64,000 bases of DNA from an uncultured Actinomycetes bacterium (GCA_964551945.1 CAZKFH010000003.1:9130-73129); one strand, 5' to 3'. Shown: positions 7,640 to 35,762, numbered from the stretch's first letter. The notes: generated from the sequence alone by a model not told the origin. Numbers and translations: made by a program.

Positions 7640-7653
7640 GTGGAGCGAGTCGG

Positions 7654-9501: not shown

Positions 9502-9536
9502 AAAGCACCTCCGGGTCGTGGGAGTGAGCGTGCCCG

Positions 9537-9565
9537 AATCTATTGAGGGTCCCCCGGGGTGTCAA
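9537..9565 (-). promoter_or_regulatory. Near-consensus sigma70-type promoter for LVIVD paralog 2
   Basis: Minus strand reads TTGACA (9565..9560), a 17-nt spacer, TAGATT (9542..9537). It lies about 35 nt upstream of the GTG at 9501. Confidence 0.5.
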
Positions 9566-9592
9566 CTCGATCGCGCCGGGCCGGAAAGCAGA

Positions 9593-9619
9593 GGGCCCCC
9601 GGAGGATCTCCGGGGGCCC
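9593..9619 (-). terminator. Hairpin terminator downstream of LVIVD paralog 3
   Basis: GGGCCCCCGGA / ggatc / TCCGGGGGCCC gives a perfect 11-bp stem. It begins about 20 nt after the stop at 9639. Confidence 0.55.
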
Positions 9620-9638
9620 GGTGCTTGCTACTCGCGTG

Positions 9639-17175: not shown

Positions 17176-18303
17176 TCAGTGTAGTGCGTCGATGAGGAGG
17201 CCCCGGAGTCGCCCGGAGAGGGCGTCCCAGGTCAGATCGCGGTGGACGCGATCGGCTCCCGCGGCTCCGAGCTTCGCTGCCTTCTCTGGATCGCCGAGCA
17301 GCTCGAGGATCCCCTCGGCCACCTCGTCCACCTCGTGCCCGTCGACCACGAGCCCGGTCTCGCCGTGGATGACCGCCTCGGGCGCGCCGCCGGAATCGCC
17401 GGCGACCGATGGCCGGCCCACGGCGGAGGCCTGCAGGAACACGGCCCCGAACGCCTCGACCTCGAGCCCGAGCTTCCTCGTCCGGCACGGCATCGCGAAC
17501 ACGTCCCCCGCTCGGAAGTACTGCGGCAGGATGTCGCCTGGCACCTCGCCCGCGAAGATAACCCGGTCAGAGACCTTCTTCCTCATCGCGAGACTCTGCA
17601 GACGCTCGAGATCGGGCCCGGTGCCAACGACGAGGAACCTCGCATCGGGGATCTCGCGCAGTATCCAGGGGAGTGCCCGGATGATCTTGTCCTGTCCCTT
17701 GCGCAGGGTGAGCCTGGACACGCAGCAGATCACGGGATGGTCGTCGAGGCCGTGCAGCTCGCGGACCTCCCGGTCCGAGACCCCGGGGTGGTACCGCTCG
17801 CGGTCGATCCCGGGGGGGAGCAGCTCGATCCGTGGACCCGGCCCTACCATCTGGCGCAGCTCGTCGGCCGCCCACTGCGAGACGCAGGTGACGAGGGCAG
17901 CGCGCTTCGCGATCTGCGAGAGGAGGCGACGGGTCACGGGGACCTGGCCGGCCCACAGCTCGACGCCGTGCGTGAACGCCGCGTACGGCACGCCGGTTCG
18001 CCGTTCGAGCGTTCGGCCCATCAGCGCGAGGGGAGCGGCGGCACCGAACAGCACGATGTCCGGTCGCTCTGCCTCGATCAGCTCGATGACGCGCTCTCGC
18101 ACGGGCCCGGTGGGATACATGCTCTTGGTCTCCCAGCGCACGACCGGGTGCGGGTACGTGGCGTCGAAGGCTTCGGCGCCCGGCCAGCTAGAAGCGAACA
18201 CGAGGACCTCGCCGGTTGGGAAGCGACGCAGCAGCTCTGCCGTGTAGTGGTTGATGCCGCCCACGCGGGGTGGGAAGTCGTTGGTGACGAGGAGGGTCTT
18301 CAC
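17176..18303 (-). CDS. GT4 glycosyltransferase, PimB-like mannosyltransferase family
   Basis: N-terminus LLVTNDFPPRVGGINHY (PimB-type) and C-terminal GT-B EX7E region (EAFGAVFLQASAVGRPSVAGDSGGAPEAV). First gene of the heptose operon. Confidence 0.85.
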   Translation of the reverse strand: MKTLLVTNDFPPRVGGINHYTAELLRRFPTGEVLVFASSWPGAEAFDATYPHPVVRWETKSMYPTGPVRERVIELIEAERPDIVLFGAAAPLALMGRTLERRTGVPYAAFTHGVELWAGQVPVTRRLLSQIAKRAALVTCVSQWAADELRQMVGPGPRIELLPPGIDRERYHPGVSDREVRELHGLDDHPVICCVSRLTLRKGQDKIIRALPWILREIPDARFLVVGTGPDLERLQSLAMRKKVSDRVIFAGEVPGDILPQYFRAGDVFAMPCRTRKLGLEVEAFGAVFLQASAVGRPSVAGDSGGAPEAVIHGETGLVVDGHEVDEVAEGILELLGDPEKAAKLGAAGADRVHRDLTWDALSGRLRGLLIDALH

Positions 18304-18367
18304 TGGGCTCTCCCGAAGTGGCGGGCCTGCGGATGATACTCGGGTGGGCTTGCGGTTGGCTGGTGGG

Positions 18368-19081
18368 ATGATGCGAGCCGTGGATCAGCCCGTGCTGACA
18401 CCGTGGCGGCCCTGGGAGGCCATCCCCGTGGCCCTCGCGGCCCTGTGCACCAGCATCATCGTTGCCGTTGGGTTCGCGGCGGTGGGCGCGGGAGTCGGCG
18501 GCACCCCCCTGTTGCTCTCCGCGATCGCGATGCAGGCCTCCTTCCTCGGTTTCTCGCTTGCGTGGGTCACCATCCGCCACCGCCAGGGCCCCGCCGCCCT
18601 GGGACTTCGCAGTGCCCGTGCGACCCGCGACCTGGCGCTCGGTGCGTGGATCGGGGCGGGGCTCTTCGCGGGAGTCCTGTTCGCCATCCTCCCGGCCATC
18701 GTGGGGCTGTGGACCGTGATCACCGGAGGTCCGCCCGAGCCGATCGAGCAGCCGATCCTGCCGGTCGATCCCGCGCCCCTGCATGTCGTGCTCGGAGCGG
18801 CCGCGGTGGTGATCGCCGCCCCGCTCGGAGAGGAGGTGTTCTTCCGAGGGTTCCTGTTCGGGTCCCTGCGCGGACGAATGGGGTTCGCGCCGGCGGCCGC
18901 GATCTCGGCGGCAATCTTCGCGATCTTCCACATCTCGCCGCTGCTCGTCGTGCTGATGTTCTTCGTGGGGTTGGCGCTCGCCTGGCTCTACGAGCGCAGG
19001 GGGTCCCTGATCGCGCCGATCGGCGCGCACGCGATGTTCAACGTGATCGGCTACACGCTCCTGCTGATGGAACGGACCTGA
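18368..19081 (+). CDS. CPBP (CAAX/Abi) family intramembrane metalloprotease
   Basis: Polytopic, with motif 1 EEVFFRGFLFG and motif 2 FAIFH. ATG ATG at 18368 chosen over the track start at 18251, which would overlap the divergent GT gene. Confidence 0.8.
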   Translation: MMRAVDQPVLTPWRPWEAIPVALAALCTSIIVAVGFAAVGAGVGGTPLLLSAIAMQASFLGFSLAWVTIRHRQGPAALGLRSARATRDLALGAWIGAGLFAGVLFAILPAIVGLWTVITGGPPEPIEQPILPVDPAPLHVVLGAAAVVIAAPLGEEVFFRGFLFGSLRGRMGFAPAAAISAAIFAIFHISPLLVVLMFFVGLALAWLYERRGSLIAPIGAHAMFNVIGYTLLLMERT

Positions 19082-19893: not shown

Positions 19894-20250
19894 ATGAGCA
19901 CAGCGCGCAAGGTCCTTATCGGAGGCGTGACGGCCGCACTGCTCGTGTCCACGGGTGGCGTCGGTCTGGCCAAGACGTACACGGTGAAGGCCACTTCCAG
20001 CGACACGTGGAAGAAGGTCCACACGTACATCGGCAAGGGCGACAGCGTGAGCTGGAAGAATCCCGACAGCGAGACCCACGATCTCAACGCGTACGGCGGC
20101 GGTTGGAAGCTGAGCGAGGAGCTCAACCCCGGTGACAGTGCCAAGAAACGCTTCAGGAAGAAGGGGACGTTCCGCTACCGATGCGTGATCCACTCGGGGA
20201 TCGTCAGCGGCGCCTGCAAGGGCATGTGCGGTTTCGTCCACGTCCTCTGA
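19894..20250 (+). CDS. Small secreted cupredoxin-like protein
   Basis: 118 aa with a signal peptide. Plastocyanin-like layout (GDSVSWKNPDSETHD ... GTFRYRCVIHSGIVSGACKGMCGFVHV) with candidate His/Cys/His/Met ligands and an unusually long Cys-to-Met loop. Confidence 0.65.
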   Translation: MSTARKVLIGGVTAALLVSTGGVGLAKTYTVKATSSDTWKKVHTYIGKGDSVSWKNPDSETHDLNAYGGGWKLSEELNPGDSAKKRFRKKGTFRYRCVIHSGIVSGACKGMCGFVHVL

Positions 20251-20277
20251 CGCGGACTCTCAGCTTGATCTGGGTCG

Positions 20278-21939
20278 TTACGCCGCGACCTGACTGGTTA
20301 CGGCGACGGTTTCGAACTCGTCGTCGCCGGCCCACGTCACCGTCACGTTGTGCGTCCCGGCCGACAGACCGAGGTCCGCGGAGAAGGAGCCGTCGGCTCC
20401 CGTGGTGGTCGTCAGCGTGGTGCCGCCGGAACGGATCTCGACGGTCTTGCCGGCGAGAGGCTTGTTGACCCAACCGTCGGCGGTGAGGACCGCGTACCGG
20501 TCGAGTGCGCCGCTGACCGAGCCGCCCGTGGCAGAGTCGCTGACGCGCAGGCGCGACACCTTCTTGGGCACGGCGCCCTCGAAGTGCATGACGTCCACCC
20601 CACGGATGAGCCCGTTGGCGTAGTAGTGGTCCTTGGCGACCGAGATGTCGAACGGCAGCCACTGCGACGCGTTCACCAGGTCGCCGTCCGCGATGTAGTT
20701 GCCCAACGTGTTGCCCCACGTGGTCGGCCCAAGGCCGCGTCCGGGGTTGTGCGAGTACTCGGTGTACTCGCCGCCGGAGGTGAGCGTGGCCGCCCTCGGG
20801 TCCACGACCCAGGTGCCGCCCATGTACAGGCCCACCGTGATCAGCAGGCGCTCGGGCTGGATGTGGAAGCTGTGCAGGTTGCAGGGGCCGAAGTTCGGGT
20901 TGGTCGTCGGCGGGGCCGGAACGGGTTCGGTTGCTGCACCCGTGTAGGGCGCGAACCATGTCCCCATCTTGATCGGGTTCGTCAGGCTGGCTCCGGGCTT
21001 GTACTTCCCGCTGATGTCGTAGAAGTGGAGGCCGCCGCCGGGGCAACGGACGTACGTCTGACCCGTGCCGTTGGCGCCCGCACGGAAGTCGGCGACTGCC
21101 ACGAACGAGGAGTCGGGGGCCGGGTAGGCCTCGTGGGCAAATTCGATGTCGCGATCCCGGTGCTCCAGGACCAGTGTGGGGTTGGCGGGGTCGCTCGTGT
21201 TGAGGATTCCCCATTTCCCATCCCCCGCGGCACTGCAGAAGCCCACGTAGGTGAGGTCGGGATTGTTCGGGTCCGGATAGAACTCGTGGCCGCAGAGGAG
21301 GCCCAGGCCCGGGATGCCCTTCAGGCCGAGGTCCACGGGGTTCCGGGGGTTCGTGTAGTCGATGATGTGCGTCGGCAGCGTCGTGTAGACATAGTTGTCG
21401 CCGATCATCCGGATGGTGTGCGGACCGTCAGTGGCAGGGCTGCTCACCCCGCCTAGCCGTTTCCCCGGGACTGGGGCCGTCTCGGCGGTGCCCAACAGAA
21501 CCGGCGCCTCGATGTCCGAGATGTCCACGAACTCGACGCCGGGGGTCATCCCGTGCCCCACCGATTTGCCCTGTTCCTCGATCGAGAGGGCGACGATGTT
21601 CCGCTCCCCGTTGACCTGCACCCAGGGGTGGTAGTTGACTCCCGGGCTCACGTACCTGCTGACGGTGCTGGGCTTCAGCGGGTCAGAGATGTCGACGATG
21701 TCGAATCCGTTCCCGTGGGCAGCAGCCACCGCGTAGCGCTTCAGGGTGCCGTCGGAGAGGCGTCGCTCGAAGAAGTCGAGGGCGTTGCCGCCGACATTGA
21801 AGGCGTTCCCGCCGGAGTCCGAGTGAACGTCGTGGTGGCTGACGGTGCCGGTGGAGGGAATCTGCGCGGAGGCAGCGCCGTTCACGAGCTGCACTGCGAG
21901 GAGAAGCACGAGGGAGAGGGGTAGATACCGTCGCAACAT
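20278..21939 (-). CDS. Secreted LVIVD-like beta-propeller protein, paralog 4, with C-terminal carboxypeptidase-regulatory/Ig-like domain
   Basis: ATG at 21939 lies 5 nt after GGAGG and 11 nt after the upstream stop. Signal peptide MLRRYLPLSLVLLLAVQLVNGAASA. Motifs FDIVDISDPLKP, VEFVDISDIEAP, ILNTSDPANP. Tail reads GKTVEIRSGGTTLTTTTGADGSFSADL. Confidence 0.7.
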   Translation of the reverse strand: MLRRYLPLSLVLLLAVQLVNGAASAQIPSTGTVSHHDVHSDSGGNAFNVGGNALDFFERRLSDGTLKRYAVAAAHGNGFDIVDISDPLKPSTVSRYVSPGVNYHPWVQVNGERNIVALSIEEQGKSVGHGMTPGVEFVDISDIEAPVLLGTAETAPVPGKRLGGVSSPATDGPHTIRMIGDNYVYTTLPTHIIDYTNPRNPVDLGLKGIPGLGLLCGHEFYPDPNNPDLTYVGFCSAAGDGKWGILNTSDPANPTLVLEHRDRDIEFAHEAYPAPDSSFVAVADFRAGANGTGQTYVRCPGGGLHFYDISGKYKPGASLTNPIKMGTWFAPYTGAATEPVPAPPTTNPNFGPCNLHSFHIQPERLLITVGLYMGGTWVVDPRAATLTSGGEYTEYSHNPGRGLGPTTWGNTLGNYIADGDLVNASQWLPFDISVAKDHYYANGLIRGVDVMHFEGAVPKKVSRLRVSDSATGGSVSGALDRYAVLTADGWVNKPLAGKTVEIRSGGTTLTTTTGADGSFSADLGLSAGTHNVTVTWAGDDEFETVAVTSQVAA

Positions 21940-21950
21940 CCCAGCCTCCA

Positions 21951-23681
21951 TCATCGATCCGTCGGCCCCACGATGATCGTGCCCTGCATGGCCCCGTCCG
22001 TGGGGTTCGTTGTCGATGTGTACTTCCACACGCTTTCGGTGTTTCCGAAGTCGTATCGGTAGGACCCTCGAGGAGGGATGTCCCCCGGGGAGTCCATCTC
22101 GGTGCATGGGTTGGATGTGACGGGAGGCGCGCAAACTTCCTCACCGAAGGTGCGGGCCTGGGTCCTCACATTGTGAGCCACCGTGTCCAGGTTCACCCAC
22201 AGTACCGAGGTGTCCCGTGGGATCGCCACGATCGATGGCACGAACTGGCCGGCCTGCATCTCGATCGTCGCGGTATCCGGCGTGTCGAGCACGTGCACGA
22301 CTCGGTAGATGAGGCCCTGCATGTCGGCGACGTACATCGCCCCATCCGGACCGAATGTGAGGTCCATGGGGAGCACGCCGGTCATGAACTCCCGCTTGCG
22401 CTCGGTAAGGCCCGTCTCCGGATCGATGTCGACGTGGGTGATCTTGTGGCCCGTGGGGACGGCGCCGTTGAGGTTCCACAGGCTGCCCCACTCGCCCACG
22501 AACAGGTCACCGTCGTAGCGCTGCGGGAACTCGCCCCCGCGCTCGAAGGCGAGCCCGGTGGTCCCGTTGTGCGCCTCCCGGAAGAACATGATTGGCCGCA
22601 GAACCTCGCTCTTGCGGCATGGGCCGAAACGGTCGATCGTCGCGGGGTTGGGGTTGTCCTCGGGTTCGAACGTCTCGGGGTGGGGGTGTCCGCCGCCGAT
22701 CTCTCCGATATCCGGGACCGGGAAGTTGTTCGAGTGGCCGCCGTAGAGGCACGAGGGGAAGCCTGCGTCGTCGATGACCGGGCCCATGATCGGGGCGCCG
22801 ATCGCGTCGTGACCCACGACCTTCGTGTCGTTGACGTCGGTGCGGAAGAGGGGCTCGTTCGAGGCCGGCTGATCGGACCCGTTCATCGGCGTGTAGATCA
22901 TCGAGGGATCGCCGGGCCAGAAGTCCACATCGAAGATGTTCCGGTAGCCGGGCGAGACAAGCACGCTCTCGTCGTCCATGCCGTCCGCGGCGAACTCCGC
23001 GTCGTCATCGACGCGCACGTTGTTCCTCAGGTCAACGTTGTTCCACGAGGGATCGACGCGGAGAATGGCTCCGGTCCACGGTTTGACCTCGACCTGTCCG
23101 GCCGGGCAGGGCTCACCGTCGGGCGGTCCGCACTCGATACCGTCGTCGGTGCCGTTGCCGTTGGCCACGTACAGGGCGCCGTCGGGCCCGAAGGTCATGC
23201 CGTTCGTCTGGTGCCGGCCGTTGGGGATGTTGTGCAGAACCGTCCGACGCTGGTCGTAGGTGCCGTCCGCGTTCGTGTCCCGGAGTGCCAGGATGCTGCC
23301 CTTGTTGTCGGCGTTGTCGGCCGCGTACAGGGTGCCGTCCGGGCCGAACGTGATCCCGAGGAGCTGTCCGAAGCCCTCGGCCACGATCTGCGGGGGACCA
23401 CCGACGCCGCCGAGGTCCTCGAACGCGAGGATGCGCCCGTCTCCGAGCCCGAGAAGGACGGCGACGTACAGCCGTCCGTCGGGACCGAAGGTGAGGCTGG
23501 AGGGGAGGAGTCCCGGGGTCGCGGCGAAAACCCCCGCGCCGAATCCGACGGGGACGGTTAGTCCATTAGCCGCCTGGGGGAGGCTGGACTGCGAGCTCGC
23601 GGGGGTTTGCCCGAGCAGGGATGCCGTGAGGCTCGCTGCGATCAGAACGATCTGCGCCCGCCTGCCGAACCTGCGTGTCAA
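21951..23681 (-). CDS. Secreted GSDH/NHL-like beta-propeller (PQQ-type sugar dehydrogenase fold) fused to a C-terminal cupredoxin-like domain
   Basis: TTG start 6 nt after GGGAGGA. Repeated FGPDG blades (LTFGPDGRLYVA, ITFGPDGTLYAAD, MTFGPDGALYVANG, LTFGPDGAMYVAD). C-terminal roughly 110 aa reads VLWVNLDTVAHNV ... GAMQGTIIVGP. Confidence 0.75.
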   Translation of the reverse strand: MTRRFGRRAQIVLIAASLTASLLGQTPASSQSSLPQAANGLTVPVGFGAGVFAATPGLLPSSLTFGPDGRLYVAVLLGLGDGRILAFEDLGGVGGPPQIVAEGFGQLLGITFGPDGTLYAADNADNKGSILALRDTNADGTYDQRRTVLHNIPNGRHQTNGMTFGPDGALYVANGNGTDDGIECGPPDGEPCPAGQVEVKPWTGAILRVDPSWNNVDLRNNVRVDDDAEFAADGMDDESVLVSPGYRNIFDVDFWPGDPSMIYTPMNGSDQPASNEPLFRTDVNDTKVVGHDAIGAPIMGPVIDDAGFPSCLYGGHSNNFPVPDIGEIGGGHPHPETFEPEDNPNPATIDRFGPCRKSEVLRPIMFFREAHNGTTGLAFERGGEFPQRYDGDLFVGEWGSLWNLNGAVPTGHKITHVDIDPETGLTERKREFMTGVLPMDLTFGPDGAMYVADMQGLIYRVVHVLDTPDTATIEMQAGQFVPSIVAIPRDTSVLWVNLDTVAHNVRTQARTFGEEVCAPPVTSNPCTEMDSPGDIPPRGSYRYDFGNTESVWKYTSTTNPTDGAMQGTIIVGPTDR

Positions 23682-23743
23682 CTGGATTCCTCCCGCGCTG
23701 GTGAAGATGCCCTGCGGAAGGATTCACCGCGACTCCCGGGTAC

Positions 23744-23767
23744 CCCTTTGTGCACATGCACAAAGGG
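23744..23767. promoter_or_regulatory. Perfect 11-bp inverted repeat (candidate operator) in a divergent promoter region
   Basis: CCCTTTGTGCA ca TGCACAAAGGG. It lies 63 nt upstream of the GSDH-like gene start (23681, minus) and 36 nt upstream of the S8 peptidase ATG (23803, plus). Confidence 0.5.
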
Positions 23768-23802
23768 CTTTCTGAGGCACGTGGCGTATCTCTCTCCTAG
23801 AC

Positions 23803-25395
23803 ATGAGCGGGCGCGGGCAGCTTCGTGTGCATCTGGTGGGCATCCTGGTCCTGATCGGGGTGCTGGCCTACCCGGGCGCCCCCGCGATCCCCGCTGAGGC
23901 ACCTCTTTCTCTCGCCAAGATCGATCCCGTCCTCTCGACGCAGGTCGCGGTCCGGGGCTTCGCTCCGGCGATCCTCACGTGGGACCGCACCCAGGTCGAA
24001 CGCTCGGAGATCTCCTCGTATCTCGCGGAGAACGAGATCGACGCGAACGTCCTCAACGGGCTCTCCGTCGCCTTCGCCTGCGCCGGGAGCGCCCAGGACC
24101 TGAGCCTTCTGGCCGAGGCCCCCGGTGCCGTGTCCGTCTGGGGGGACCGGGCTCTGAAGCCGGCCCTCGACGAGAGCACCCGGACCGCGTTCAACGGAGA
24201 CCCGAACACGATCTGGCAGGGACAGGGGATCACCGGAAAGGGCGTCGCGATCGGCGTCGTGGACACCGGTATCGACGCGAGCCATCCCGACCTCCAGTCC
24301 GGTATCAAGACGAAGCTGAACATTCGCGTGCTGCTCTCGAAGCACGACGTCACCGGGCCCTACTCGGATCCCTGTGGGATCACCGACACTTATTCCGAGC
24401 AGCTCATCGACTCCGAGCTCACGAGCGGACACGGCACGCACCTCGCCAGCGTCGCTGCCGGCGACGGCACCGTCTCCGGCGGCCGCTACCGGGGAGTCGC
24501 GCCGGGTGCCGACCTCATCGGAGTCGGCGTGAGCGAGTCGACGGCGCCCCAGGCGACGGCCTGCCTGTCCGACCAACCGTGTGCCCCGGAGGGGCAGACC
24601 TACCTATCCCTTCAGGGTGCGATCGCGGGGATGAACTACGTGCTCTCGACGGGGCTCGAGGGCTGCTACGCGCCCTACTGCCCGGAGTTCAAGCCGCTCA
24701 CCGCGAAGGTGATCCTCGCCGGCTGGGTCCAGGAGGGTCTTCACGACCCGTGGCACCCGATGAGCTGGATCGTGGGCGACCTGGGTTGGTACGGGATCAA
24801 CGTGGTCTTCCCCGTTGGGAACGAGGGCCCCACCGCGAGCGACTGCTCGTCCGCAGCGACCTGCTACTTCAATTCCTATGCCGTCGCGGACATGGCCATC
24901 GGTGTCGCGGCCACACCGCGAAGGACTGACGCGACTCTGGAGCCGTACTCCTCTCGAGGCGACCCCATCGCCCGGCAGGCGCGTGGCGAGACCATCAAGT
25001 ACGCCCCGATGCTGTCGGCTCCGGGAACGGGAGTCGTCGCCGCGAGACGGCCGGGATTCGCTCCGGTCGCACAGCTTCCTCTGTCGAACCTCGGTGGCAA
25101 GCCGCACAGCGAGATCGGCATCGATCGCCGGTACGTTCCCCTGACGGGGACGAGCGTCGCCGCCGCCCACGTGGCCGGCGCGATCGCCCTGATGCAGGAA
25201 GCGGCGTTCAAGGGGAGCGGCTGCTACCTCACGGCGCAGCGCGTCATCGACATCCTGCGATCCACCGCGGACCCGATGTCCGGATTCCAGGCTCACGAGA
25301 TCGGTTCCGGAGCGCTCGATGTGAAGAGCGCCGTCAACCAGGCTCGCTCCGGCGGTCCGTCCTCGCCGGATCCCTGGATGTGCCCCAGCTCCTGA
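23803..25395 (+). CDS. Secreted subtilisin-family (S8) serine peptidase
   Basis: Catalytic triad motifs VVDTGIDASHPDL (Asp), SGHGTHLASVAAG (His), LTGTSVAAAHVAGAIALM (Ser). Hydrophobic N-terminal signal. No obvious SD before the ATG. Confidence 0.9.
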   Translation: MSGRGQLRVHLVGILVLIGVLAYPGAPAIPAEAPLSLAKIDPVLSTQVAVRGFAPAILTWDRTQVERSEISSYLAENEIDANVLNGLSVAFACAGSAQDLSLLAEAPGAVSVWGDRALKPALDESTRTAFNGDPNTIWQGQGITGKGVAIGVVDTGIDASHPDLQSGIKTKLNIRVLLSKHDVTGPYSDPCGITDTYSEQLIDSELTSGHGTHLASVAAGDGTVSGGRYRGVAPGADLIGVGVSESTAPQATACLSDQPCAPEGQTYLSLQGAIAGMNYVLSTGLEGCYAPYCPEFKPLTAKVILAGWVQEGLHDPWHPMSWIVGDLGWYGINVVFPVGNEGPTASDCSSAATCYFNSYAVADMAIGVAATPRRTDATLEPYSSRGDPIARQARGETIKYAPMLSAPGTGVVAARRPGFAPVAQLPLSNLGGKPHSEIGIDRRYVPLTGTSVAAAHVAGAIALMQEAAFKGSGCYLTAQRVIDILRSTADPMSGFQAHEIGSGALDVKSAVNQARSGGPSSPDPWMCPSS

Positions 25396-25396
25396 G

Positions 25397-27355
25397 CTAG
25401 CCGACCGTCTCCTCGAAGCACCCGTACGACGACCCGTCATCCGACGTTGCCGACCCGTCGAATCTCCAGTCTCCGGGTCCAAGCTGAGCGTCGGCCAGGA
25501 AGTGTCCCTGCGTGAGAGGGATAGGGTCGAGCGAGAGGGCCGCGGACCCCGGCATCCAGGCGGTGATCGACGGAAGGCCGTCGACGGCGACCTCCTTGCC
25601 GTCGGGACCGATGAACGTGAAGTGCACCTCGAAACGACCCTGGCCCAGGTCGATCACGTACCCCTCGACGGAGCCACCATCGGGCGTGTCCAGTGTGCTG
25701 ACGGTCGGCTCATTCTGTTTCGTTCCCTCGATCCGAAGGGCTGTGCAGAGCGTCGCGAACTCGAGCGGCACCTCGACCGAGTCGGTGCCCTGCTGCACCA
25801 GCGCCGCCACTTTCCAGGGGCCGCCGATCGACAGGTTGCTGCCGGCTCCCTCGTACAACCCATCGTCCGTTGGATCCATCTCCAGTGTCGAGGGGGCGAC
25901 CTCGGCGGTTCCCAGGAAGGAGAACTGCAGGGCGACGCGCTGAGCCTCGATGGCTTCGCCAGAGTCGAAGTCGTTCGCCTGAAGGGCGAACTGATTCGAG
26001 CCCGCCAGTCCCGGACTCACCTCGAGGCGGAGGCGAACCGATCTCGCGAAGTCTGATCCCGTGACCGTGACGCCGGGGGGAGGCCCGGCTCGAGCAGGCA
26101 CTTGCGCCGGAGGCACGAGTGTCGCGAGGACCGCCGCTGCCCCCACGGCTGCAACCGCCAACGTGAGCTCCCCGCGAGAGATTCTTCGCAGCCCCCGGAG
26201 GGATGTCGCCGCTTCCCCAACGTGCCGGAAGCGGTTCACGGCGCCCAGTCCTGCCAGAGCCAGGATGAGCCCCGATTTCACCAGCACGGCGATGCCGTAG
26301 CCGGTCGTGAACAATGCACCCCAGTCGCCGATCTCGTTGATGGAGCGGATCACGCCGGTGACGACGACGGCCGCGAGCGCGAAGCCGGCCACCAGGGAGA
26401 AGCGCCGAACGGCCGAGGCCTTCGTCTCGCCCGGCTCTCCCCGGATCCCGACCAGCAGGGCCGCCAGGCCGCCGAGCCAGATGCCCGCGGCTGCGAAGTG
26501 CACCCACTGCCCCACGACCTTCGCCCAGGCCAGATCGCCGCGCGCCGCGGCGTGGCCCGCGATCACGTGGGCGAGCATCGCGCCTGCCGCCCCGAGTCCC
26601 ACCACGATCAGGGCTCGACGGCGAGATGCCGGCCACGCACGGGCCGCAAGAAGACCCGTCCCCGCGATCATGATCGCGCCACCCCGATACAGGAGGGCTC
26701 GACCCACCTTCGTCGGCAGGAACTCGCCGAACCCGGCACCCGAGCTCTGCTGCTGCGCCAGCGCGAGAACCACGAGGCCGACCACGGATACCAGCCACGC
26801 GCACGCCGCCAGCCGATAGACGCCGCGCGGGGAGTCGCCGAAGGCGATACCTCCAACCCAGGCTGCTCCGATCAGGAGGCCCAGCCCCAGGAAGATGATG
26901 ACACGTCCGGCCATCTCCAGCGGCGAGGACGGGGGTGTCTCGGGGGCTCCGGCAGAGGGAGTTACTCCGGCCGGGGAGACTCCGACCCCGAAGGCGAACG
27001 CGCCACCGCTGGGATGGCCATCGACCTGGGAGACGGTTCTCCACGTGACCGTGTAGACGCCTTGTTCGAGGGGCGGCGATGAGACGCTGAGGGCTCGAGG
27101 GTCACTCGAGGCCGCGTCGGCTCCACCGACGTCGAGCTCGGCTCCCGTGGTATCGAGGAGGACGATCGAGGACAGTGCCGGTTCGGGCGCCTCGGTGAAC
27201 CTGAGGACGATCTCGGATGGCGCCTCGGTGAGCGTCGCGCCGTCCGCGGGCTCCGACGCTTCCAGCAACGCGTGAGCATCGGCGGGTCCGGGCAGCATCA
27301 GGGCCAGAACGATGGCAGCTCCCGCTGCCGCCCAAACCCGCCGCGCTCTCGTCAT
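25397..27355 (-). CDS. CopC-CopD fusion copper transport/resistance protein (YcnJ-like) with C-terminal extracytoplasmic domains
   Basis: Signal peptide then HALLEASEPADGATLTEAPSEIVLRFTE (CopC with N-terminal His). Polytopic CopD-like core, then about 220 aa of beta-rich domains. ATG at 27355, just after the upstream stop, preferred over 27388. Confidence 0.85.
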   Translation of the reverse strand: MTRARRVWAAAGAAIVLALMLPGPADAHALLEASEPADGATLTEAPSEIVLRFTEAPEPALSSIVLLDTTGAELDVGGADAASSDPRALSVSSPPLEQGVYTVTWRTVSQVDGHPSGGAFAFGVGVSPAGVTPSAGAPETPPSSPLEMAGRVIIFLGLGLLIGAAWVGGIAFGDSPRGVYRLAACAWLVSVVGLVVLALAQQQSSGAGFGEFLPTKVGRALLYRGGAIMIAGTGLLAARAWPASRRRALIVVGLGAAGAMLAHVIAGHAAARGDLAWAKVVGQWVHFAAAGIWLGGLAALLVGIRGEPGETKASAVRRFSLVAGFALAAVVVTGVIRSINEIGDWGALFTTGYGIAVLVKSGLILALAGLGAVNRFRHVGEAATSLRGLRRISRGELTLAVAAVGAAAVLATLVPPAQVPARAGPPPGVTVTGSDFARSVRLRLEVSPGLAGSNQFALQANDFDSGEAIEAQRVALQFSFLGTAEVAPSTLEMDPTDDGLYEGAGSNLSIGGPWKVAALVQQGTDSVEVPLEFATLCTALRIEGTKQNEPTVSTLDTPDGGSVEGYVIDLGQGRFEVHFTFIGPDGKEVAVDGLPSITAWMPGSAALSLDPIPLTQGHFLADAQLGPGDWRFDGSATSDDGSSYGCFEETVG

Positions 27356-27359
27356 ACCT

Positions 27360-28010
27360 CTACGCGGCCGGCCGCTTCCGAAGCGCAACGACGAGGGCGA
27401 TCAGCGCAAGGATGCCGCTTCCGATCGCGAACCAGAGGGCAGTCTTGTCGCCACCGCCATCGTCGGCCCGGAGTCGGTCGACCGCCTGCGCGAGCTCACC
27501 GGCCGTCGGGTCCTGCTCCGGGAACTGGATATCCGCCGGGACATTCACGTTGGAGAAGGTGTCCTCGCTCGAGGTGAAGAACTCATCGATCTCCTGCCCG
27601 GCCACGGTTCCGGTGACGTGGTAGGTGTAGGTCCCCGGCCGGGTCGGGATGATGTCCGCCTCGAACAGCCCGGGCTCGCTGAACGCCTCGTCCATTGGAA
27701 GCGGTCCGGTGGTCGTCGTTGAGGTCTCGTCGCCAAACAGGATCTCGACCTGGATGTCGGCGTCGGAGATCGGGGGTCCTTCTTCGTCCTCGCTGGGTCC
27801 AACTTCGCTGAGGTGAACGCCGGCCGAATTCTGGTACCCCGCATAGGTCGGTTCGTTGCCCCAGCCGACGACCATGACGATGTCGCCGACCACGCGGTGC
27901 TCGTGCGCGCCGGCGGGGGCGGCCTGCATGACCATCAGCGCTCCCATCGCAAGCATCGAGAACGTCACCGCGAGCAGGCGGCGGCGTCCCGTTCGGATTG
28001 CTCGATTCAT
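27360..28010 (-). CDS. Secreted, C-terminally membrane-anchored protein with YcnI-like architecture
   Basis: ATG at 28010 lies 7 nt after GGGAGGA. Signal peptide ends AAPAGA, then HEH. About 150 aa beta-rich domain, acidic linker, single C-terminal TM (ALWFAIGSGILALIALVVAL) and a basic tail RKRPAA. Assignment rests on architecture and position next to CopCD, not on sequence motifs. Confidence 0.6.
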   Translation of the reverse strand: MNRAIRTGRRRLLAVTFSMLAMGALMVMQAAPAGAHEHRVVGDIVMVVGWGNEPTYAGYQNSAGVHLSEVGPSEDEEGPPISDADIQVEILFGDETSTTTTGPLPMDEAFSEPGLFEADIIPTRPGTYTYHVTGTVAGQEIDEFFTSSEDTFSNVNVPADIQFPEQDPTAGELAQAVDRLRADDGGGDKTALWFAIGSGILALIALVVALRKRPAA

Positions 28011-28065
28011 GTCTGCATCCTCCCTCAGTCTTGTGCCCACGCAATTGATTCGTTGCGGGGCCGCA

Positions 28066-28088
28066 GCAGGGACGGCCTTCGTCCCTGC
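28066..28088 (-). terminator. Hairpin between the 4-TM protein gene and the YcnI-like gene
   Basis: GCAGGGACG / gcctt / CGTCCCTGC gives a 9-bp stem directly after the stop at 28094. It could be a terminator or an attenuator. Confidence 0.4.
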
Positions 28089-28093
28089 GATCT

Positions 28094-28654
28094 TCACGCG
28101 ACGAGAACGGGAGGGGGTGCGCGGCGGCGAGAAAGAAGGAGAAGCCAGGCTCGGGATGGCGGGATCTGGAGGGCAGGTGCGGGGAAGGATTGCTGGACGG
28201 TGCGCCGCGTGGTTCGGAGGCGAACGACGATCGCACGAACAGCTCGGTGCAGCAGATCGAGGATCCACCCTGAGAGGACGGCGAGGAGCGGCTGCAGCGC
28301 CAGTCCGACGAACACCGCGGGGTCGAAGAGCGCTTCCTGGATGGACCAACCCCGCTCTGCCACCTCGATGATCGAGAACGCAGGGATCTGGATGGCGAGG
28401 AGACGGAGTGGGAGCCCGGGACCGTTCCAGGAGGAGTCCATCCGAAAGCTTCGTACCGCTGCCACCAGCAGGATGACGGGGATCGCGGCGAGCAGCGAGG
28501 CGGTGGCCAGACCGAGCCACTCGTGGCCGGTGATGTCGAGATGGACGTGCCTGAGGCTCTGGCTCGGATAGGTCAGGAGATACGCCACGAAGTGACCCGC
28601 GACGACCCCGACCCACGCGAGCGCGCCGGTAAGCGCCAACCTCGGACGTCTCAC
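28094..28654 (-). CDS. Small 4-TM membrane protein, function unknown
   Basis: GTG at 28654 (AGGA 8 nt upstream) gives 186 aa with four clear hydrophobic helices. The upstream part of the 295-aa track ORF is Arg/Gly-rich and looks non-coding. The start is uncertain. Confidence 0.45.
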   Translation of the reverse strand: MRRPRLALTGALAWVGVVAGHFVAYLLTYPSQSLRHVHLDITGHEWLGLATASLLAAIPVILLVAAVRSFRMDSSWNGPGLPLRLLAIQIPAFSIIEVAERGWSIQEALFDPAVFVGLALQPLLAVLSGWILDLLHRAVRAIVVRLRTTRRTVQQSFPAPALQIPPSRAWLLLLSRRRAPPPVLVA

Positions 28655-29348: not shown

Positions 29349-30385
29349 AGGCCGTCGTCTACGAGGACGTCCAGAAGGTTCGCGTCGACGAGATCGACGA
29401 GCCCGCCATCGAGGAGCCCGCCGACGCGATCGTCCGCGTGACGACCTCCGCCATCTGCGGCTCGGACCTCCACTTCTTCCACGGCAAGGCACCGATGCTG
29501 CCCGGCGAGCAGCTCGGCCACGAGGGCATCGGTGTCGTGGAAGAGGTGGGCGACGGCGTGGACCGGTTCGCGCCGGGCGACCGTGTCGTCATCGCATTCA
29601 ACATCGTCTGCGGCGAGTGCTGGTTCTGTCAGAACGGGCAGAACGCGCTATGCGAGAACTACCGGAACATGGGCGGCGGGCTGGCGACCGGCAGCCTCGG
29701 TGGCACCCAGGCCGAGCAGGTGCTCGTCCCGAACGCGAACGTGAATCTGCTGAAGGTTCCCGAGGGCATGGAGGACGAGCGAGCGCTGTTCGTCGGCGAC
29801 ATCTTGACGACCGGCTACTACGGCGCGGCGATCGCGGGGATCAAGCCCGGCGATACGGTCGCCGTGATCGGTGCGGGCCCGGTCGGCTTCTTCGCAGCCC
29901 AGGCGGCCAGGCTGCACGATCCATCCGAGGTCATCGTGCTCGACATGCAGACCGACCGGCTCCAGCTCGCAGAGAAGATCGGCGCGGTCGCGGTCAACGT
30001 CACGGAGCGCAACGCACAGATGGCCGTGGCGGATCGAACCGGCGGACGCGGAGCCGATGTCGTGATCGAAGCCGTGGGAGCCATCCCCGCGTTCGAATCT
30101 GCGCTCGAGGTGGTCCGCTCCGGCGGAACCGTCTGCGTCCTTGGGATGTACACGACCGAGAGCGTTGAGCTGCAGTTCGGCATGCTCTGGTTTCGCACGC
30201 TGCGGTTCGTGATGAGTGGCTTCTGCCCGGTCCACGCGTACTGGGAGTCGGCGATGCAGGCGGTCGCCGACGGCAAGATCGATCCCTTGCCGATCGTCTC
30301 GCACACCCTTCCCCTGGCGGAGGCAGTGAAGGGCTACGACCTTTTCAACCGGAGGGAAGCAACCAAGGTCCTGCTGAAGCCGTGA
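29345..30385 (+). CDS. Zn-dependent alcohol dehydrogenase (MDR superfamily)
   Basis: ATGA overlap with the upstream gene. Catalytic Zn motif (ICGSDLHFF...GHEGIGVVEEVG), structural Zn cluster (CGECWFCQNGQNALC) and Rossmann motif VAVIGAGPVG. Confidence 0.9.
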   Translation: MKAVVYEDVQKVRVDEIDEPAIEEPADAIVRVTTSAICGSDLHFFHGKAPMLPGEQLGHEGIGVVEEVGDGVDRFAPGDRVVIAFNIVCGECWFCQNGQNALCENYRNMGGGLATGSLGGTQAEQVLVPNANVNLLKVPEGMEDERALFVGDILTTGYYGAAIAGIKPGDTVAVIGAGPVGFFAAQAARLHDPSEVIVLDMQTDRLQLAEKIGAVAVNVTERNAQMAVADRTGGRGADVVIEAVGAIPAFESALEVVRSGGTVCVLGMYTTESVELQFGMLWFRTLRFVMSGFCPVHAYWESAMQAVADGKIDPLPIVSHTLPLAEAVKGYDLFNRREATKVLLKP

Positions 30386-30795
30386 GGCCCACCGTCGAGT
30401 TCCTCGATCAGGAGCCGAACGGCATCGCCACGATGATCGGCGGGTTGATCCAGGCGAACCTCGCGAATCATCCGGACCGTTCGACGCTGCTCAAGCCGGC
30501 CATCGTGGGCATCGTCGCGGAGGATGCGCACGTGGCGCTGACGCTCGGGATCTCGCCGGAGCGCGTAACGGTTCGGAACGGGCTCGCGCCGCACGTCGAC
30601 GTGCTGGTGCGCTCGGATTCGGAGACGCTGACCGAGATGTCGTCGACCCCGCTCCGGCTCGGCTTTCCGGACGCGTTCAGCAAGGCGGGCCGCGCGGTCA
30701 CCCGGAAGCTCTTCTCCGGGGCGTTGAGCGTGCGGGGCCTCATCCTGCACGCGGGGACAGTCTCCCGGCTGAACCGCCTGCTCTCCGTAGCCTGA
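30382..30795 (+). CDS. Second SCP2-like domain protein
   Basis: GTGA overlap with the ADH gene. 137 aa with an SCP2-like tail (KLFSGALSVRGLILHAGTVSRL). Confidence 0.65.
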   Translation: MRPTVEFLDQEPNGIATMIGGLIQANLANHPDRSTLLKPAIVGIVAEDAHVALTLGISPERVTVRNGLAPHVDVLVRSDSETLTEMSSTPLRLGFPDAFSKAGRAVTRKLFSGALSVRGLILHAGTVSRLNRLLSVA

Positions 30796-30835
30796 GAAGG
30801 TGCATTTCAGAGACGCTCGTATCATTGAAGGTGCA

Positions 30836-32059
30836 ATGCCCCGCATCTTCCGGATCCTCCCCGTCGCCGCGATCCTCGTCACCACGTCGCTCTCGGGTGT
30901 GCAGGCGGCGTGCGCGAGCGGCCACATCGCCGCGACGCTGACCGACTTCCCGCCCGAGGCGATCTCGAGCCCCTTCTACTGGACGACCGAAGGCAGCGGG
31001 AGCAGTCAGATCCTCTTCGTCCTGCGAGCTATCGGGGACGACTGCACACCCTCGGCAATCACCATCAGCTACGCGACCAAGGACGGGTCGGCGACCGCTC
31101 CGACCGACTATGCGCCGACCTCGGGACAACGCGCTGTCAGCACCGACCCGACACACGGCGGGAACGATCGCCAGCCAGTCTCCGTGCCGGTCGTCGGCGA
31201 CCTGGTTCCGGAGGCCGTCATCGAATCGGCCGTCGTTGAGCTGAACGGCGTTCAGGGCGGAGGTCACCTGAGCGCGCCGATCTCCGCCGCGCTGCACATC
31301 GTGGACGATGACGGGCCGACGGCACAGATCTCCCTCGACCCCGCTGCGAGCTACCGGCAGCTCGAGACCTTCAACCTCGCGGGTATCGCGGTGTTCCGCG
31401 GCGGATCCGCCGGCGGGCAGGTCACGGTGCCGTACACCGTGCAGCCGGGTCCCGGTCCTGCTGCGAGCCCGGGGGGCGACTATCGGGCGGAGTCCGGCAC
31501 CCTCACCTTCGCGCCCGGCGACAGGATCGAGATGATCCCGATCACGCTGGTGAACGACCGCGACACCGAGGCGGACGAGAGGTTCACCGTGACGCTGACC
31601 GGCGCCGAGGGCGGCGAGCTCACCGAGGCGTCGAGCGTGGTGTTCACGATCCTCGATAACGAAGAGCTCTCCGCACCCGAGAGTCTCTTTCATCACCCGC
31701 GGAACAAGTTCAAGTACCGGGCGAAGGACTACCGCATCCGCGAGATCCACGTGTTCACCAAGGACAAGGGCGGGTCCGGCGTGACGCAAGCGCAGCTCGC
31801 GCTCAGGAAGGACCTGGCAGGAAGCGGATGCGAGTGGTGGAACGGGAAGAGGTGGAACAGCCGCTCCTGCAAGAAGCATCTGTGGGTGCCGATGGGGATC
31901 TACGAGCCCGACTTCTTCTACCTGCGAGTTCCCGAGCTTCCGCGAAGCACGGGGGGTATCAAGAGCTACACTGCGTTCTCGATGGCGATCGACGGCGCCG
32001 GAAATCGTGAGCGCCGCCTCGAGGCCGGCCGCAACGCCAACACCTTCGACATCAAGTAG
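30836..32059 (+). CDS. Secreted protein with two Calx-beta-like domains
   Basis: ATG at 30836 follows GAAGG and a signal peptide. Calx-beta signatures (ISYATKDGSATAPTDYAPTSG ... ; GGDYRAESGTLTFAPGDRIEMIPITLVNDRDTEADERFTVTLTG). Confidence 0.7.
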   Translation: MPRIFRILPVAAILVTTSLSGVQAACASGHIAATLTDFPPEAISSPFYWTTEGSGSSQILFVLRAIGDDCTPSAITISYATKDGSATAPTDYAPTSGQRAVSTDPTHGGNDRQPVSVPVVGDLVPEAVIESAVVELNGVQGGGHLSAPISAALHIVDDDGPTAQISLDPAASYRQLETFNLAGIAVFRGGSAGGQVTVPYTVQPGPGPAASPGGDYRAESGTLTFAPGDRIEMIPITLVNDRDTEADERFTVTLTGAEGGELTEASSVVFTILDNEELSAPESLFHHPRNKFKYRAKDYRIREIHVFTKDKGGSGVTQAQLALRKDLAGSGCEWWNGKRWNSRSCKKHLWVPMGIYEPDFFYLRVPELPRSTGGIKSYTAFSMAIDGAGNRERRLEAGRNANTFDIK

Positions 32060-34707: not shown

Positions 34708-35660
34708 GACGTTCGAGCCGGCCGCCGCGCGACCAGCTGAAGAACCGCGCCTGCGGCCGCCACCACCACGCCGATCCCCAGGGACGAGGGCACCTCGAGG
34801 ATGCCGCCCTCCGCGGCCACCGACTGCAGGGTCCGCAGGGCGAACCCGAGAGGGATCATGACGGTCACGAGCCCGACGAATCTACGAAGGAATGTGAAGC
34901 CCGGGGAGGCCATCACCAGGAGTGATACGAGCGCGCCGAGCGTGCCGACGAGTAGCAGGATCAGGCCTAGGGTTGGTCCGGATGAAGCAGCCTCGGGGTC
35001 GAGGAGCCACGCGGCGCGGATGTCCCGAGGTAAGGACCCGCGGAACGGCCCCTCCCAGTCGAGGATCGCGGACATAACGACCGCGATCGCTCCGATCAAT
35101 GCGAGCGTTCCTCCCCAGGGGAACCCGGCTCGTCGGGGGATCGAGCCTTCCCAGCCGTCCGACTCCGGTTCCTCCGCTCCCATGGGGAGAACCTCTCCCA
35201 GGGGGGCGGTCGGCGAGATGCGTTCGATCGTGCCAGTGGTTGCCTCCGAGGGCTGAGGGGGCGGTTCGGCGGGACGCGATACAGGCCGGGGAGGCGCCGG
35301 ACGGGGGGGTCGCTGAACAGGGATCGACTCGGTTGGCGCGTCGTGGATCACCAAAGGGGGCGGCGGTGCGGGGGCAAAGAGGTCCTCGACGAGAGCTCCG
35401 GCGGAATGGATCTCGTGGCCGTTGCCCGCCGCCGGCATCCCCGCGAACACTTCCTCTTTCGGCTCGGGGGCGCGGGCCCCGCAGCTTCGGCAGAATCGCG
35501 CGTCGGCCTCCAGCGAGCCGCCACACCCGGAGCAGTATCGGCTCAACCCCACGTCAACGGGCGCCACGCCGGCCAACGCCTTGCCGCAACGTCCACAGAA
35601 GCGATCGGACACGTCGGTGGGGGCGCCACACGCGGTGCAATGGGCCATCGGATCGAGCAT
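34704..35660 (-). CDS. Double zinc-ribbon, Pro-rich linker, 4-TM membrane protein
   Basis: N-terminus CTACG...CGRCG and CSGCG...CRSCG (two CxxC pairs each), then a Pro-rich spacer and a hydrophobic C-terminal third. Start is ATG at 35660 or 35648. The rest of the 456-aa track ORF is rejected. Confidence 0.65.
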
Positions 35661-35710
35661 AGACCGTGCTCTGACGTATCCCGTGGATTTCGCTGTTCGC
35701 CTGACGTCAG

Positions 35711-35756
35711 ATGCAAGAGGATTCTGTTGCAAGGGTTTGCAAGAGGGTGCTTGAAT
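35711..35756 (+). promoter_or_regulatory. TTGCAA repeat cluster (Nur/Fur-box-like) overlapping a putative leaderless promoter
   Basis: ATGCAA (35711..35716), TTGCAA (35727..35732), 4 nt, TTGCAA (35737..35742). Then TTGAAT (35751..35756), 6 nt, and the GTG at 35763. TTGCAA at 35727 lies 18 nt upstream of TTGAAT. Confidence 0.45.
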
Positions 35757-35762
35757 CCATCC

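Follow-up and report, generated by a model that had tools for sequence, protein, structure and literature searches.

CopD-type copper import is still poorly understood. To our knowledge, the only accessory Cu(II) chaperone characterised for this type of import is YcnI, a member of the DUF1775 family. The subject of this report is a seven-gene locus, at positions 19894-28654 of a 64-kb stretch of DNA (about 67% G+C; the whole stretch is called 'the window' below) from an uncultured Actinomycetes bacterium (GCA_964551945.1, CAZKFH010000003.1:9130-73129), in which the genes of a copper importer of this kind stand next to genes for secreted beta-propeller proteins.

The closest described importer is that of Bacillus subtilis. 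There, YcnJ has the architecture CopC-CopD-YtkA, and YcnI carries an N-terminal mono-histidine brace and a transmembrane (TM) anchor (PMC12362106, PMC13344008, PMC8424229). YcnI exchanges Cu(II) with the CopC domain of YcnJ (PMC12362106), and both proteins matter under copper limitation (PMC12362106, PMC13344008). A YtkA paralog, the B. subtilis lipoprotein CtaK, assists CuA assembly in cytochrome caa3 (PMC13344008). The propeller proteins have no such history: those with LVIVD repeats have been treated only as surface or attachment proteins (PMC2447325; bioRxiv 10.1101/2022.05.06.490989), and a literature search on LVIVD and DUF7133/TIGR02604 proteins found no functional work.

A preliminary description of the window had read the seven genes as one extracytoplasmic copper/redox system linking LVIVD propellers to CopC and CopD. 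Such a system is not supported by the comparative data. The reading preferred here, with a probability of roughly 0.7, is that the island juxtaposes two independent cell-envelope modules: a copper-acquisition operon of the YcnJ/YcnI type (module B) and a separate propeller trio (module A). The copper pair itself is real, and one of its members comes from a new family, which makes it more interesting than the preliminary description stated.

Gene neighbourhoods of the two modules

Module B is an operon on the minus strand (28654 to 25397) with the order 4-TM, N-His, CopCD. The first gene encodes a protein of 186 amino acids (aa) with about four TM segments (the 4-TM protein, 28094-28654); the second, after a gap of 83 nucleotides (nt), a 216-aa protein named N-His here for its N-terminal histidine (27360-28010); and the third, 4 nt further on, a 652-aa CopC-CopD fusion (CopCD, 25397-27355). 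A small secreted cupredoxin of 118 aa (19894-20250, plus strand) is treated as an accessory of this module. Module A, which lies between the cupredoxin and CopCD, comprises three secreted proteins: LVIVD-4, the fourth LVIVD paralog of the window (20278-21939, minus strand; 553 aa), a DUF7133/GSDH-like propeller with a cupredoxin-fold domain (21951-23681, minus strand; 576 aa; 'GSDH-like' below) and an S8 peptidase or subtilase (23803-25395, plus strand; 530 aa).

A genome scan made with a narrowed N-His alignment gave 52 loci (comparison loci are designated by L numbers), from Actinomycetota, Bacillota, Chloroflexota-type, Armatimonadota and Acidobacteriota genomes and one Thaumarchaeota metagenome-assembled genome. 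CopCD adjoins the N-His gene in 45 of them; of the seven in which it does not, five lie at a contig end. The S8/GSDH/LVIVD trio is present in a single locus, L090, which belongs to the window's own clade. Other propeller links among the 52 are few: one locus has other LVIVD paralogs, and two lie near a distant relative of the DUF7133 protein (L049 and, by a weak match, L138).

The picture from the other side is the same. A genome scan for the GSDH-like gene gave 78 loci, which were examined by tblastn and with profiles built in this analysis; 12 of them are non-redundant loci with orthologues at a cut-off of E<=1e-230. In all 12 the C-terminal cupredoxin-fold domain is there at full length; an LVIVD-4-type gene follows within 900 bp downstream in each of the 11 loci that have room for one (the twelfth ends at the gene); and an orthologous S8 gene is nearby in 10 of the 12. 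A CopCD or N-His gene occurs in only two, both of the window clade. Lower-scoring GSDH paralogs (E>1e-180, <45% identity), matched mostly over the propeller only, are without these neighbours. Stand-alone trios occur in unrelated contexts (L009-L012, L016-L018, L142-L144), and look-ups from the LVIVD side (L142-L144) agree with this picture of module A. In L012 (65% identity), the trio has the internal arrangement seen in the window, and no CopCD lies within 8 kb beyond the S8 gene.

The claim that the LVIVD protein, the GSDH-cupredoxin protein and the subtilase share a copper-handling system with CopCD is not supported by either count, and the single-system reading is largely refuted by these neighbourhood statistics. 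Outside this genome the seven-gene island is not conserved as a whole; its two halves are each conserved.

The island arrangement is kept in L001/L002 (84% identity) and in L003/L013 (62-68%). The flanking housekeeping genes (SCP2, ADH, Calx-beta, Rce1-like, glycosyltransferase) are also syntenic in L001 and L003; therefore, conservation of the whole island in these relatives is not evidence of functional linkage. In L005, L097 and L119 the order is N-His, CopCD and a convergent cupredoxin gene, the last two within tens of bases of each other; in the window, CopCD and the cupredoxin are separated by exactly S8, GSDH-like and LVIVD-4. As CopCD and the cupredoxin abut elsewhere, and module A stands alone in many contexts, insertion is the simplest history: most likely, module A was inserted at the CopCD/cupredoxin junction in an ancestor of the window, L001 and L003.

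Two further loci show propeller genes near module B genes. L049 (4968-9745) has a 4-TM, N-His, CopCD operon divergent from a DUF7133 paralog, which lies divergently next to the 4-TM gene; the paralog has 34% identity to the window protein, matches it only over the propeller and has no evident cupredoxin tail. L093 (10001-20307) has N-His, CopCD, an LVIVD3-like gene, a convergent small cupredoxin, a Calx-beta gene, an LVIVD2-like gene and a distant S8 gene, so that the CopCD/cupredoxin junction, where module A lies in the window, is taken up here by an LVIVD paralog. The lineages at issue are rich in LVIVD and DUF7133 paralogs; the window itself has four LVIVD genes.

The N-His protein

The N-His gene has a Shine-Dalgarno sequence (GGGAGGA) and an ATG start. 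Its product begins with a signal peptide ending AGA/HEH (the slash marks the cleavage site); an Ig-like beta-sandwich takes up residues 37-146, and a helix with a TM anchor forms the C-terminus. An AlphaFold (AF2) model, with a predicted local distance difference test score (pLDDT) of 85, shows the signal helix, the Ig-like sandwich and a C-terminal helix at 189-211. There are about 100 close relatives, mostly from metagenomic Actinomycetota, and none is annotated. The family as a whole is large: a profile search of 1.84 billion representatives found 2,184 clusters (at 50% identity) with E<=1e-3, and 1,437 with E<=1e-10.

The N-terminus is the most telling part. In an alignment of 39 members A35, H36, E37, R39, G49, E53 and P54 are invariant, and W50 nearly so. 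A small residue precedes the histidine in all 240 members with an intact N-terminus (Ala at -1 in 233, Ala at -3 in 217), and the histidine stands exactly 13 residues before a G[WF]xxEP motif in 226 of the 240. AxA/H is a canonical signal peptidase I site; the histidine is thus predicted to be residue 1 of the mature protein. The family has this site and no lipobox Cys, and the tether is the C-terminal helix: a hydrophobic C-terminus is found in 133 of 148 representatives. The preliminary description had proposed that processing would expose a histidine at or near the N-terminus of this protein and of CopC (AGA/H and ADA/H, respectively), and both sites prove to be strongly conserved. Its view of CopCD and an anchored neighbour with an N-terminal histidine as a Cu(II) acquisition pair in the style of YcnJ/YcnI is likewise supported, the pairing being very widely conserved.

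What does not stand is the label 'YcnI-like' for this protein, which shows no DUF1775 signal at all. Pfam gives it no DUF1775 (PF07987) match even at E<=5, and DUF1775 does not occur among the 18 families that the 39 aligned members match at E<=0.1. The solved YcnI structures are 7ME6/7MEK and 3ESM; the family profile finds no YcnI among all Protein Data Bank (PDB) sequences at E<=10, and its hhalign comparison with the verified sequence of 7ME6 returns a probability of 0.2%. Nor does YcnI figure among the 50 best Foldseek matches of the model in the PDB. Identification as YcnI is accordingly rejected on the Pfam, NCBIfam, PDB profile and hhalign results, with the Foldseek list in line with them: the N-His protein belongs to a new, unannotated family without homology to DUF1775. 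All its Foldseek matches are weak and Ig-like, led by filamin, CrdA, DUF4426 and FetP/P19/FtrA, with a best template-modelling score of about 0.7, for CrdA. Of these fold neighbours, CrdA, FetP, P19 and FtrA are periplasmic copper binders.

There are traces of a more distant kinship. The YtkA family (PF13115) matches 15 of the 39 members at E<=0.1, the best at 6.8e-6, and the relative P0082 has a precomputed PF13115 match; the N-His protein may thus be distantly, and weakly, YtkA-like. The possibility that it duplicates the C-terminal domain of the neighbouring CopCD was rejected (hhalign probability 0.5%).

CopCD, the 4-TM protein and the small cupredoxin

Both halves of the fusion are clear in Pfam: CopC (PF04234) at 4.6e-23 and 82.5 bits against a cut-off of 23.3, and CopD (PF05425) at 1.7e-17 and 64.1 bits against 32.1. 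NCBIfam CopC and CopD also match, CopD at 82.5 bits, under its equivalog cut-off of 195. Cleavage is predicted at ADA/H, making H28 the mature N-terminus. Residues conserved at 90% or more in 42 orthologues include H28 and D112-G113-H114 in CopC, and H268, H286, W293, G295 and G296 in CopD. With its extracytoplasmic tail, which looks weakly YtkA-like, the fusion would be built like B. subtilis YcnJ. In loci outside the Actinomycetota clade, CopCD is often followed by the gene of a small DUF4399-type Ig-like protein (L125:12640-13104, 4.4e-7; L116:12281-13183; L008:8474-8872), and Bacillota-type loci have an extra stand-alone CopC-domain gene upstream (L095:8759-9763, 2.9e-14).

The 4-TM gene has a GTG start and a TGA stop. 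Its product, like the N-His protein and the small cupredoxin, has nothing above threshold in Pfam or NCBIfam; seven of its homologues were searched against Pfam as well, and no family was found for them either. An alignment of 12 homologues shows conserved motifs: AGH in TM1, TGHxY/W, ExxER and a C-terminal R[AG]PP. By a profile from these 12, the gene lies directly 5' of the N-His gene in 22 of the 52 N-His loci, and also in L008 and L049.

The small cupredoxin had been called such in the preliminary description, and its ligand pattern bears this out better than its family matches do. Pfam Copper-bind (PF00127) gives E=0.11 and NCBIfam plastocyanin (TIGR02656) E=0.009, both far under the cut-offs; a type-1-like ligand set (H62, C97-x2-H100, M111) is conserved in seven orthologues, M111 being Gln in relatives, and C108/C112, H43 and H116 are conserved too. 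Orthologues (E<1e-40) are found only beside CopCD and convergent with it (L001-3, L005-7, L093, L097, L119) and in none of the stand-alone module A loci; the protein therefore belongs with module B.

What the sequences show for module B is its gene content and order, its topology signals, the conserved residues and the lack of DUF1775 homology. Its working can be sketched by analogy with YcnJ and YcnI: Cu(II) would be captured by the N-His protein, exchanged with CopC and imported through CopD. That is, signal peptidase I would cut the N-His protein after AxA, leaving a membrane-tethered beta-sandwich that begins with His1; this residue, through its free amine and probably with W50 and a carboxylate close by (E37 or E53), would capture Cu(II) outside the membrane; the ion would be exchanged with the histidine-brace site of CopC (H28, D112, H114); and CopC would feed the CopD channel (H268, H286). 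The N-His protein would then do the job of YcnI without being its homologue. The 4-TM protein may be an extra, lineage-restricted membrane partner, and the small cupredoxin a neighbouring copper client or redox partner of the module. A more general form of this proposal holds that the N-His family arose by convergence as a Cu(II) chaperone with a mono-histidine brace and replaces YcnI beside CopD importers in more than 1,000 lineages, the 4-TM protein being a new subunit of the importer; the odds on this broader claim seem about even.

The propeller trio

Module A is a conserved unit of uncultured Actinomycetota, an obligate pair of propeller genes with an attendant subtilase. The identities given in the preliminary description to the LVIVD, DUF7133/GSDH and S8 proteins, as to CopC and CopD, have Pfam support above the cut-offs.

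The subtilase matches Peptidase_S8 at 9e-27 (94.5 bits; cut-off 21.8), with its triad intact (D154, H213, S451) and the oxyanion residue N340, all in canonical motifs. Its assignment as a mycosin was rejected (67 bits; cut-off 279). Orthologues with 43-64% identity lie beside the propeller pair in L003, L009, L010, L011, L012, L016, L017, L018 and L144.

The GSDH-like protein has hundreds of relatives. Its propeller matches DUF7133 (PF23500) at 64.4 bits against a cut-off of 27, and GSDH (PF07995) at 27.7 against 25, the latter over residues 60-179 only. H157, R247 and N248 are invariant. There is motif-level likeness to the structures 2ISM, 3DAS and 3A9G in the GRHQTNG...FGPDG region and at YRN, and TIGR03606 gives E=0.1. 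Over the C-terminal domain (positions 470-573) the family profile matches amicyanin and plastocyanin chains at 4e-7 to 1e-6; by these matches, the domain is a true cupredoxin fold. The fusion reported in the preliminary description is thus there as to fold, at about 1e-7; its copper site is another matter. Where a type-1 site has His, Cys, His and Met, the window protein has H503, S556, N559 and M565 (S556 and N559 in the sequence YTSTTNPTDGAMQG). Judged by these ligands, the fused domain is not a blue-copper site in the window genome. The Cys and the second His are kept in only six of about 65 homologues, such as P0147 ('YHYICSLHPTTMQG').

LVIVD-4 matches PF08309 at 29.5 bits (cut-off 20.2). 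The propeller takes up residues ~30-455 and is followed by an Ig-like domain (460-553; Big_3_5/CarboxypepD_reg-like); an AF2 model shows the propeller and the Ig-like tail, with pLDDT 88 and a predicted template-modelling score (pTM) of 0.89. The top 50 Foldseek matches are generic WD40 propellers (G-beta, WDR91, COMPASS Swd1 and similar), with no enzyme and no propeller like that of NosZ or thiocyanate dehydrogenase (TcDH) among them. One histidine per blade is conserved (H174, H218, H269, H305, H356), partly so in other paralogs. These sit at the start of the strand after the outermost strand, the place of the structural GH of WD40 proteins, and their position suggests that they are probably structural. 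A copper-cluster propeller of the NosZ or TcDH kind was considered for LVIVD-4 and, the Foldseek matches being of WD40 type only, set aside as unproven. The subfamily is sharply bounded: its 82 clusters span 39-100% identity, and beyond them identity falls to 27%. The N-terminal histidine clusters pointed out in the preliminary description are present in the window genome and its closest relatives; they are not a feature of the subfamily, as SHHDVHS is common only to those relatives and 14 of 44 members have no His there. Some LVIVD-4-type proteins elsewhere begin A/HNEG, and this recurrent N-terminal 'HN' is not universal. A correlation between an intact type-1 site and an HNEG start in the partner LVIVD protein holds for the pairs P0147/P0262 and P0144/P0264 and fails for P0133/P0261 and P0161/P0263; no claim is made for it.

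Some trios have company. L009 (4204-19243; the same as L014) has an expanded module A with S8, a 777-aa and a 544-aa protein, the DUF7133 orthologue and four LVIVD-type genes; the 777-aa protein has a weak lysyl-oxidase-like match (E=0.0033, under the cut-off) and the 544-aa protein a plastocyanin/azurin domain (PF00127, 5e-12). Genes for an M28-PKD aminopeptidase, an M14 carboxypeptidase and BNR_2 proteins recur beside the trio in L010, L011, L142, L143 and L144, the last of which has two trio copies within 20 kb.

Module A probably descends from an extracytoplasmic propeller dehydrogenase that passed electrons to a type-1 copper domain of its own, now mostly degenerate. This ancestry is suggested by the amicyanin match of the cupredoxin tail (~1e-7), the six homologues that keep the ligands, and the invariance of H157, R247 and N248. 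The LVIVD propeller would be the obligate partner of the GSDH-like protein and the subtilase a dedicated processing or turnover protease; in the window lineage the fused cupredoxin has lost its copper site.

Weighing the explanations

Several points tell against the two-module reading or the workings proposed for the modules. The A-B adjacency, which persists down to 62-68% protein identity in L003, could be a mark of selection and not of inertia, and the independent propeller/CopCD adjacencies of L049 and L093 may indicate a loose functional affinity. The YtkA likenesses of module B are sub-threshold in the window: the C-terminal 233 aa of CopCD match at E=0.0011 and 20.0 bits, and the N-His protein matches PF13115 at E=0.095 and 13.8 bits, where the cut-off is 25.9 in both cases. 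Copper binding by the N-His protein is deduced from one invariant residue and from genomic context, and the redox ancestry of module A from a minority of homologues. Finally, the recurrent M28, M14 and BNR neighbours of module A would fit a plain secreted-hydrolase cluster equally well.

This last point leads to the alternative that fares best, which is tentative and concerns module A only: that the trio has no redox or metal role and belongs to a cluster of secreted proteolytic or surface proteins, its propellers serving the subtilase and the peptidases nearby as binding partners or scaffolds. The S8 gene accompanies the pair in 10 of 12 loci, and the peptidase and BNR_2 genes recur in L010, L011 and L142-144; the LVIVD model is WD40-like, with blade histidines that by position would be the structural GH; about 90% of homologues have lost the type-1 site; and surface or attachment roles are the only ones in the LVIVD literature (PMC2447325; bioRxiv 10.1101/2022.05.06.490989). 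Against this alternative, the DUF7133 propeller keeps invariant His, Arg and Asn in motifs aligning with soluble pyrroloquinoline quinone (PQQ) dehydrogenases, and the cupredoxin tail is full length in all orthologues and has a perfect type-1 site in a minority.

Secondary recruitment is unlikely. It supposes that the modules, independent in origin, were later linked in the window clade, where the copper importer would have gained module A as a client, the stand-alone cupredoxin replacing the lost type-1 site as electron acceptor of the GSDH-like protein, for example. An intact small cupredoxin gene does lie 27 nt past the stop codon of LVIVD-4, precisely in the clade whose fused domain is degenerate. 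However, it travels with CopCD and never with stand-alone module A, and in the window it is on the opposite strand, 3' of Rce1-like and Sir2 genes. In L009, the separate 544-aa cupredoxin (PF00127, 5e-12) is encoded directly 5' of a degenerate GSDH orthologue, whereas most such orthologues (L010, L012, L016, L017) have no detected cupredoxin gene nearby. The propeller/CopCD adjacencies of L049 and L093 would also suit recruitment. A more elaborate scheme makes module A a redox machine, with electrons passing from a dehydrogenase like AA12 or soluble glucose dehydrogenase (sGDH) to the cupredoxin and on to a His-lined, metal-bearing LVIVD propeller, the whole recruited in the window clade to a copper-import operon that metallates it, and the stand-alone cupredoxin again standing in for the lost type-1 site; this seems less probable still.

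A single extracytoplasmic copper/redox system of all seven genes, in which CopCD and the N-His protein supply copper to the LVIVD and GSDH-cupredoxin propellers, is improbable: the contiguity of the genes, their shared arrangement in L001/L002 and L003/L013, the cupredoxin-fold domains in two of them and the His-rich N-termini of all four window LVIVD paralogs are outweighed by at least four transcription units on both strands, by syntenic housekeeping flanks that make conservation in relatives uninformative, by loss of the link in 10 of 12 orthologous GSDH loci and about 48 of 52 N-His loci, by a fused cupredoxin without the Cys and His ligands and an LVIVD-4 His cluster that is not conserved, and by an LVIVD-4 model that is a generic WD40 propeller with no NosZ- or TcDH-like match.

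Layout of the locus and neighbouring genes

All seven open reading frames (ORFs) have proper start and stop codons at the coordinates given above, most with a recognisable Shine-Dalgarno sequence, and all seven products, read directly, have N-terminal hydrophobic signal-like segments or several TM segments. To this extent the run of seven consecutive genes for exported or membrane proteins is as first described; the genes are, however, split over both strands and form at least four transcription units. The GSDH-like and LVIVD-4 genes, probably co-transcribed, are 11 nt apart (21951 and 21939), as the preliminary description had it. The S8 gene is a unit of its own, divergent from the GSDH-like gene across a 121-nt spacer and convergent with CopCD, with a gap of 1 nt. 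The cupredoxin gene, on the plus strand 9 nt 3' of a Sir2-like gene, probably shares an operon with this gene and the Rce1-like gene upstream. The module B operon makes up the remainder. Scans of the 17-31 kb region found no promoter-like sites, two terminator-like sites (fewer than the shuffled expectation) and no Rfam match.

The Rce1-like gene (18251-19081), for a CPBP intramembrane protease, lies 5' of the Sir2-like and cupredoxin genes on the same strand; such a gene recurs near CopCD or the small cupredoxin elsewhere (L003:11514-12215, L008:8869-9453, L094:3676-3960). On the far side of module B (30382-32059) are an unannotated ORF of 137 aa and the gene of a 419-aa secreted Calx-beta protein. 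The Calx-beta gene directly adjoins the small cupredoxin in L005, L093, L097 and L119; in the window it stands beyond the CopCD operon, a difference suggestive of a local rearrangement.

The other three LVIVD paralogs of the window are in tandem on the minus strand (5820-11576) and encode proteins of 557, 615 and 645 aa, the second with RTX repeats and the third with a PA domain; their mature N-termini are His-rich (GHNADRHS, NHNMFDEHS and DDHQHGATDGH). Two further genes are unrelated to the locus: one (50364-52010) encodes a DAO-type flavin adenine dinucleotide (FAD) oxidoreductase fused to a C-terminal Rieske [2Fe-2S] domain, and the other (35343-36602) a 419-aa protein with a weak match to the nickel transporter NicO.

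Implications

The N-His family is a second, unrelated and unannotated family in the genomic and topological position of YcnI, across Actinomycetota, Bacillota, Chloroflexota-type and other phyla. If it does bind Cu(II) and hand it over, an N-terminal histidine brace on a tethered beta-sandwich would be a recurrent way to feed CopC-CopD, and the annotation of copper uptake could be improved for many soil lineages that are uncultured. For an LVIVD protein, the DUF7133-cupredoxin/LVIVD/S8 trio is the first constant set of gene partners found here, and it provides a handle on the LVIVD repeat family. LVIVD proteins should not be annotated as copper-linked on the strength of this neighbourhood.

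Comparison with known systems

The propeller pair invites comparison with NosZ, as the two genes together encode a cupredoxin domain and a propeller in which each blade has one conserved His. The likeness is superficial and was rejected: the His propeller and the cupredoxin are on different proteins, the Foldseek matches are WD40 only, and there are no CuA or type-1 ligands. LVIVD-4 has more in common with the LVIVD-repeat surface proteins of Methanosarcina and others (PF08309): its repeat match exceeds the threshold, and it is a secreted protein with the shape of a propeller. It differs from them in forming a tight subfamily, in ending with an Ig-like domain and in having a DUF7133-cupredoxin gene as its obligate neighbour.

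The GSDH-like protein resembles the soluble PQQ glucose/sorbosone dehydrogenases (PF07995) and the DUF7133 CxxCH heme proteins (TIGR02604) of the Planctomycetes-Verrucomicrobia-Chlamydiae (PVC) type in its build: a small redox-type domain comes after the propeller, in which His157 and R247-N248 are invariant. In the window, however, the appended domain is a cupredoxin and not a cytochrome, two of the four copper ligands are missing, and the TIGR02604 score (69.6 bits) is far under the equivalog cut-off of 122.

For module B there are three points of reference. In E. coli, CopC and CopD are also encoded with a further small periplasmic protein, which belongs to another fold family (PMC8689200, PMC11923076); that protein, YebY, is of the DUF2511 family and unrelated to N-His, and CopC and CopD are separate proteins. 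CtaK (YtkA, PF13115), to which the N-His family may be distantly similar, is likewise a membrane-tethered extracytoplasmic Ig-like domain linked to copper trafficking (PMC13344008). CtaK has a lipobox Cys, whereas the N-His protein has AxA/H, an invariant N-terminal His and a C-terminal TM anchor.

The nearest counterpart is ycnKJI of B. subtilis. It differs from module B in four respects: the N-His partner is not a DUF1775 protein; it is encoded upstream of CopCD, so that the gene order is reversed; no YcnK-type repressor is adjacent to module B; and, in many Actinomycetota, an extra conserved 4-TM gene precedes the N-His gene. The two systems are alike in the CopC-CopD fusion with a C-terminal region that appears YtkA-like, and in the conserved N-terminal His of CopC, its second His of the DxH type and the CopD histidines (PMC12362106, PMC13344008). 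They also share an adjacent gene for a small tethered beta-sandwich, of which the mature residue 1 is His and the C-terminus a TM anchor.

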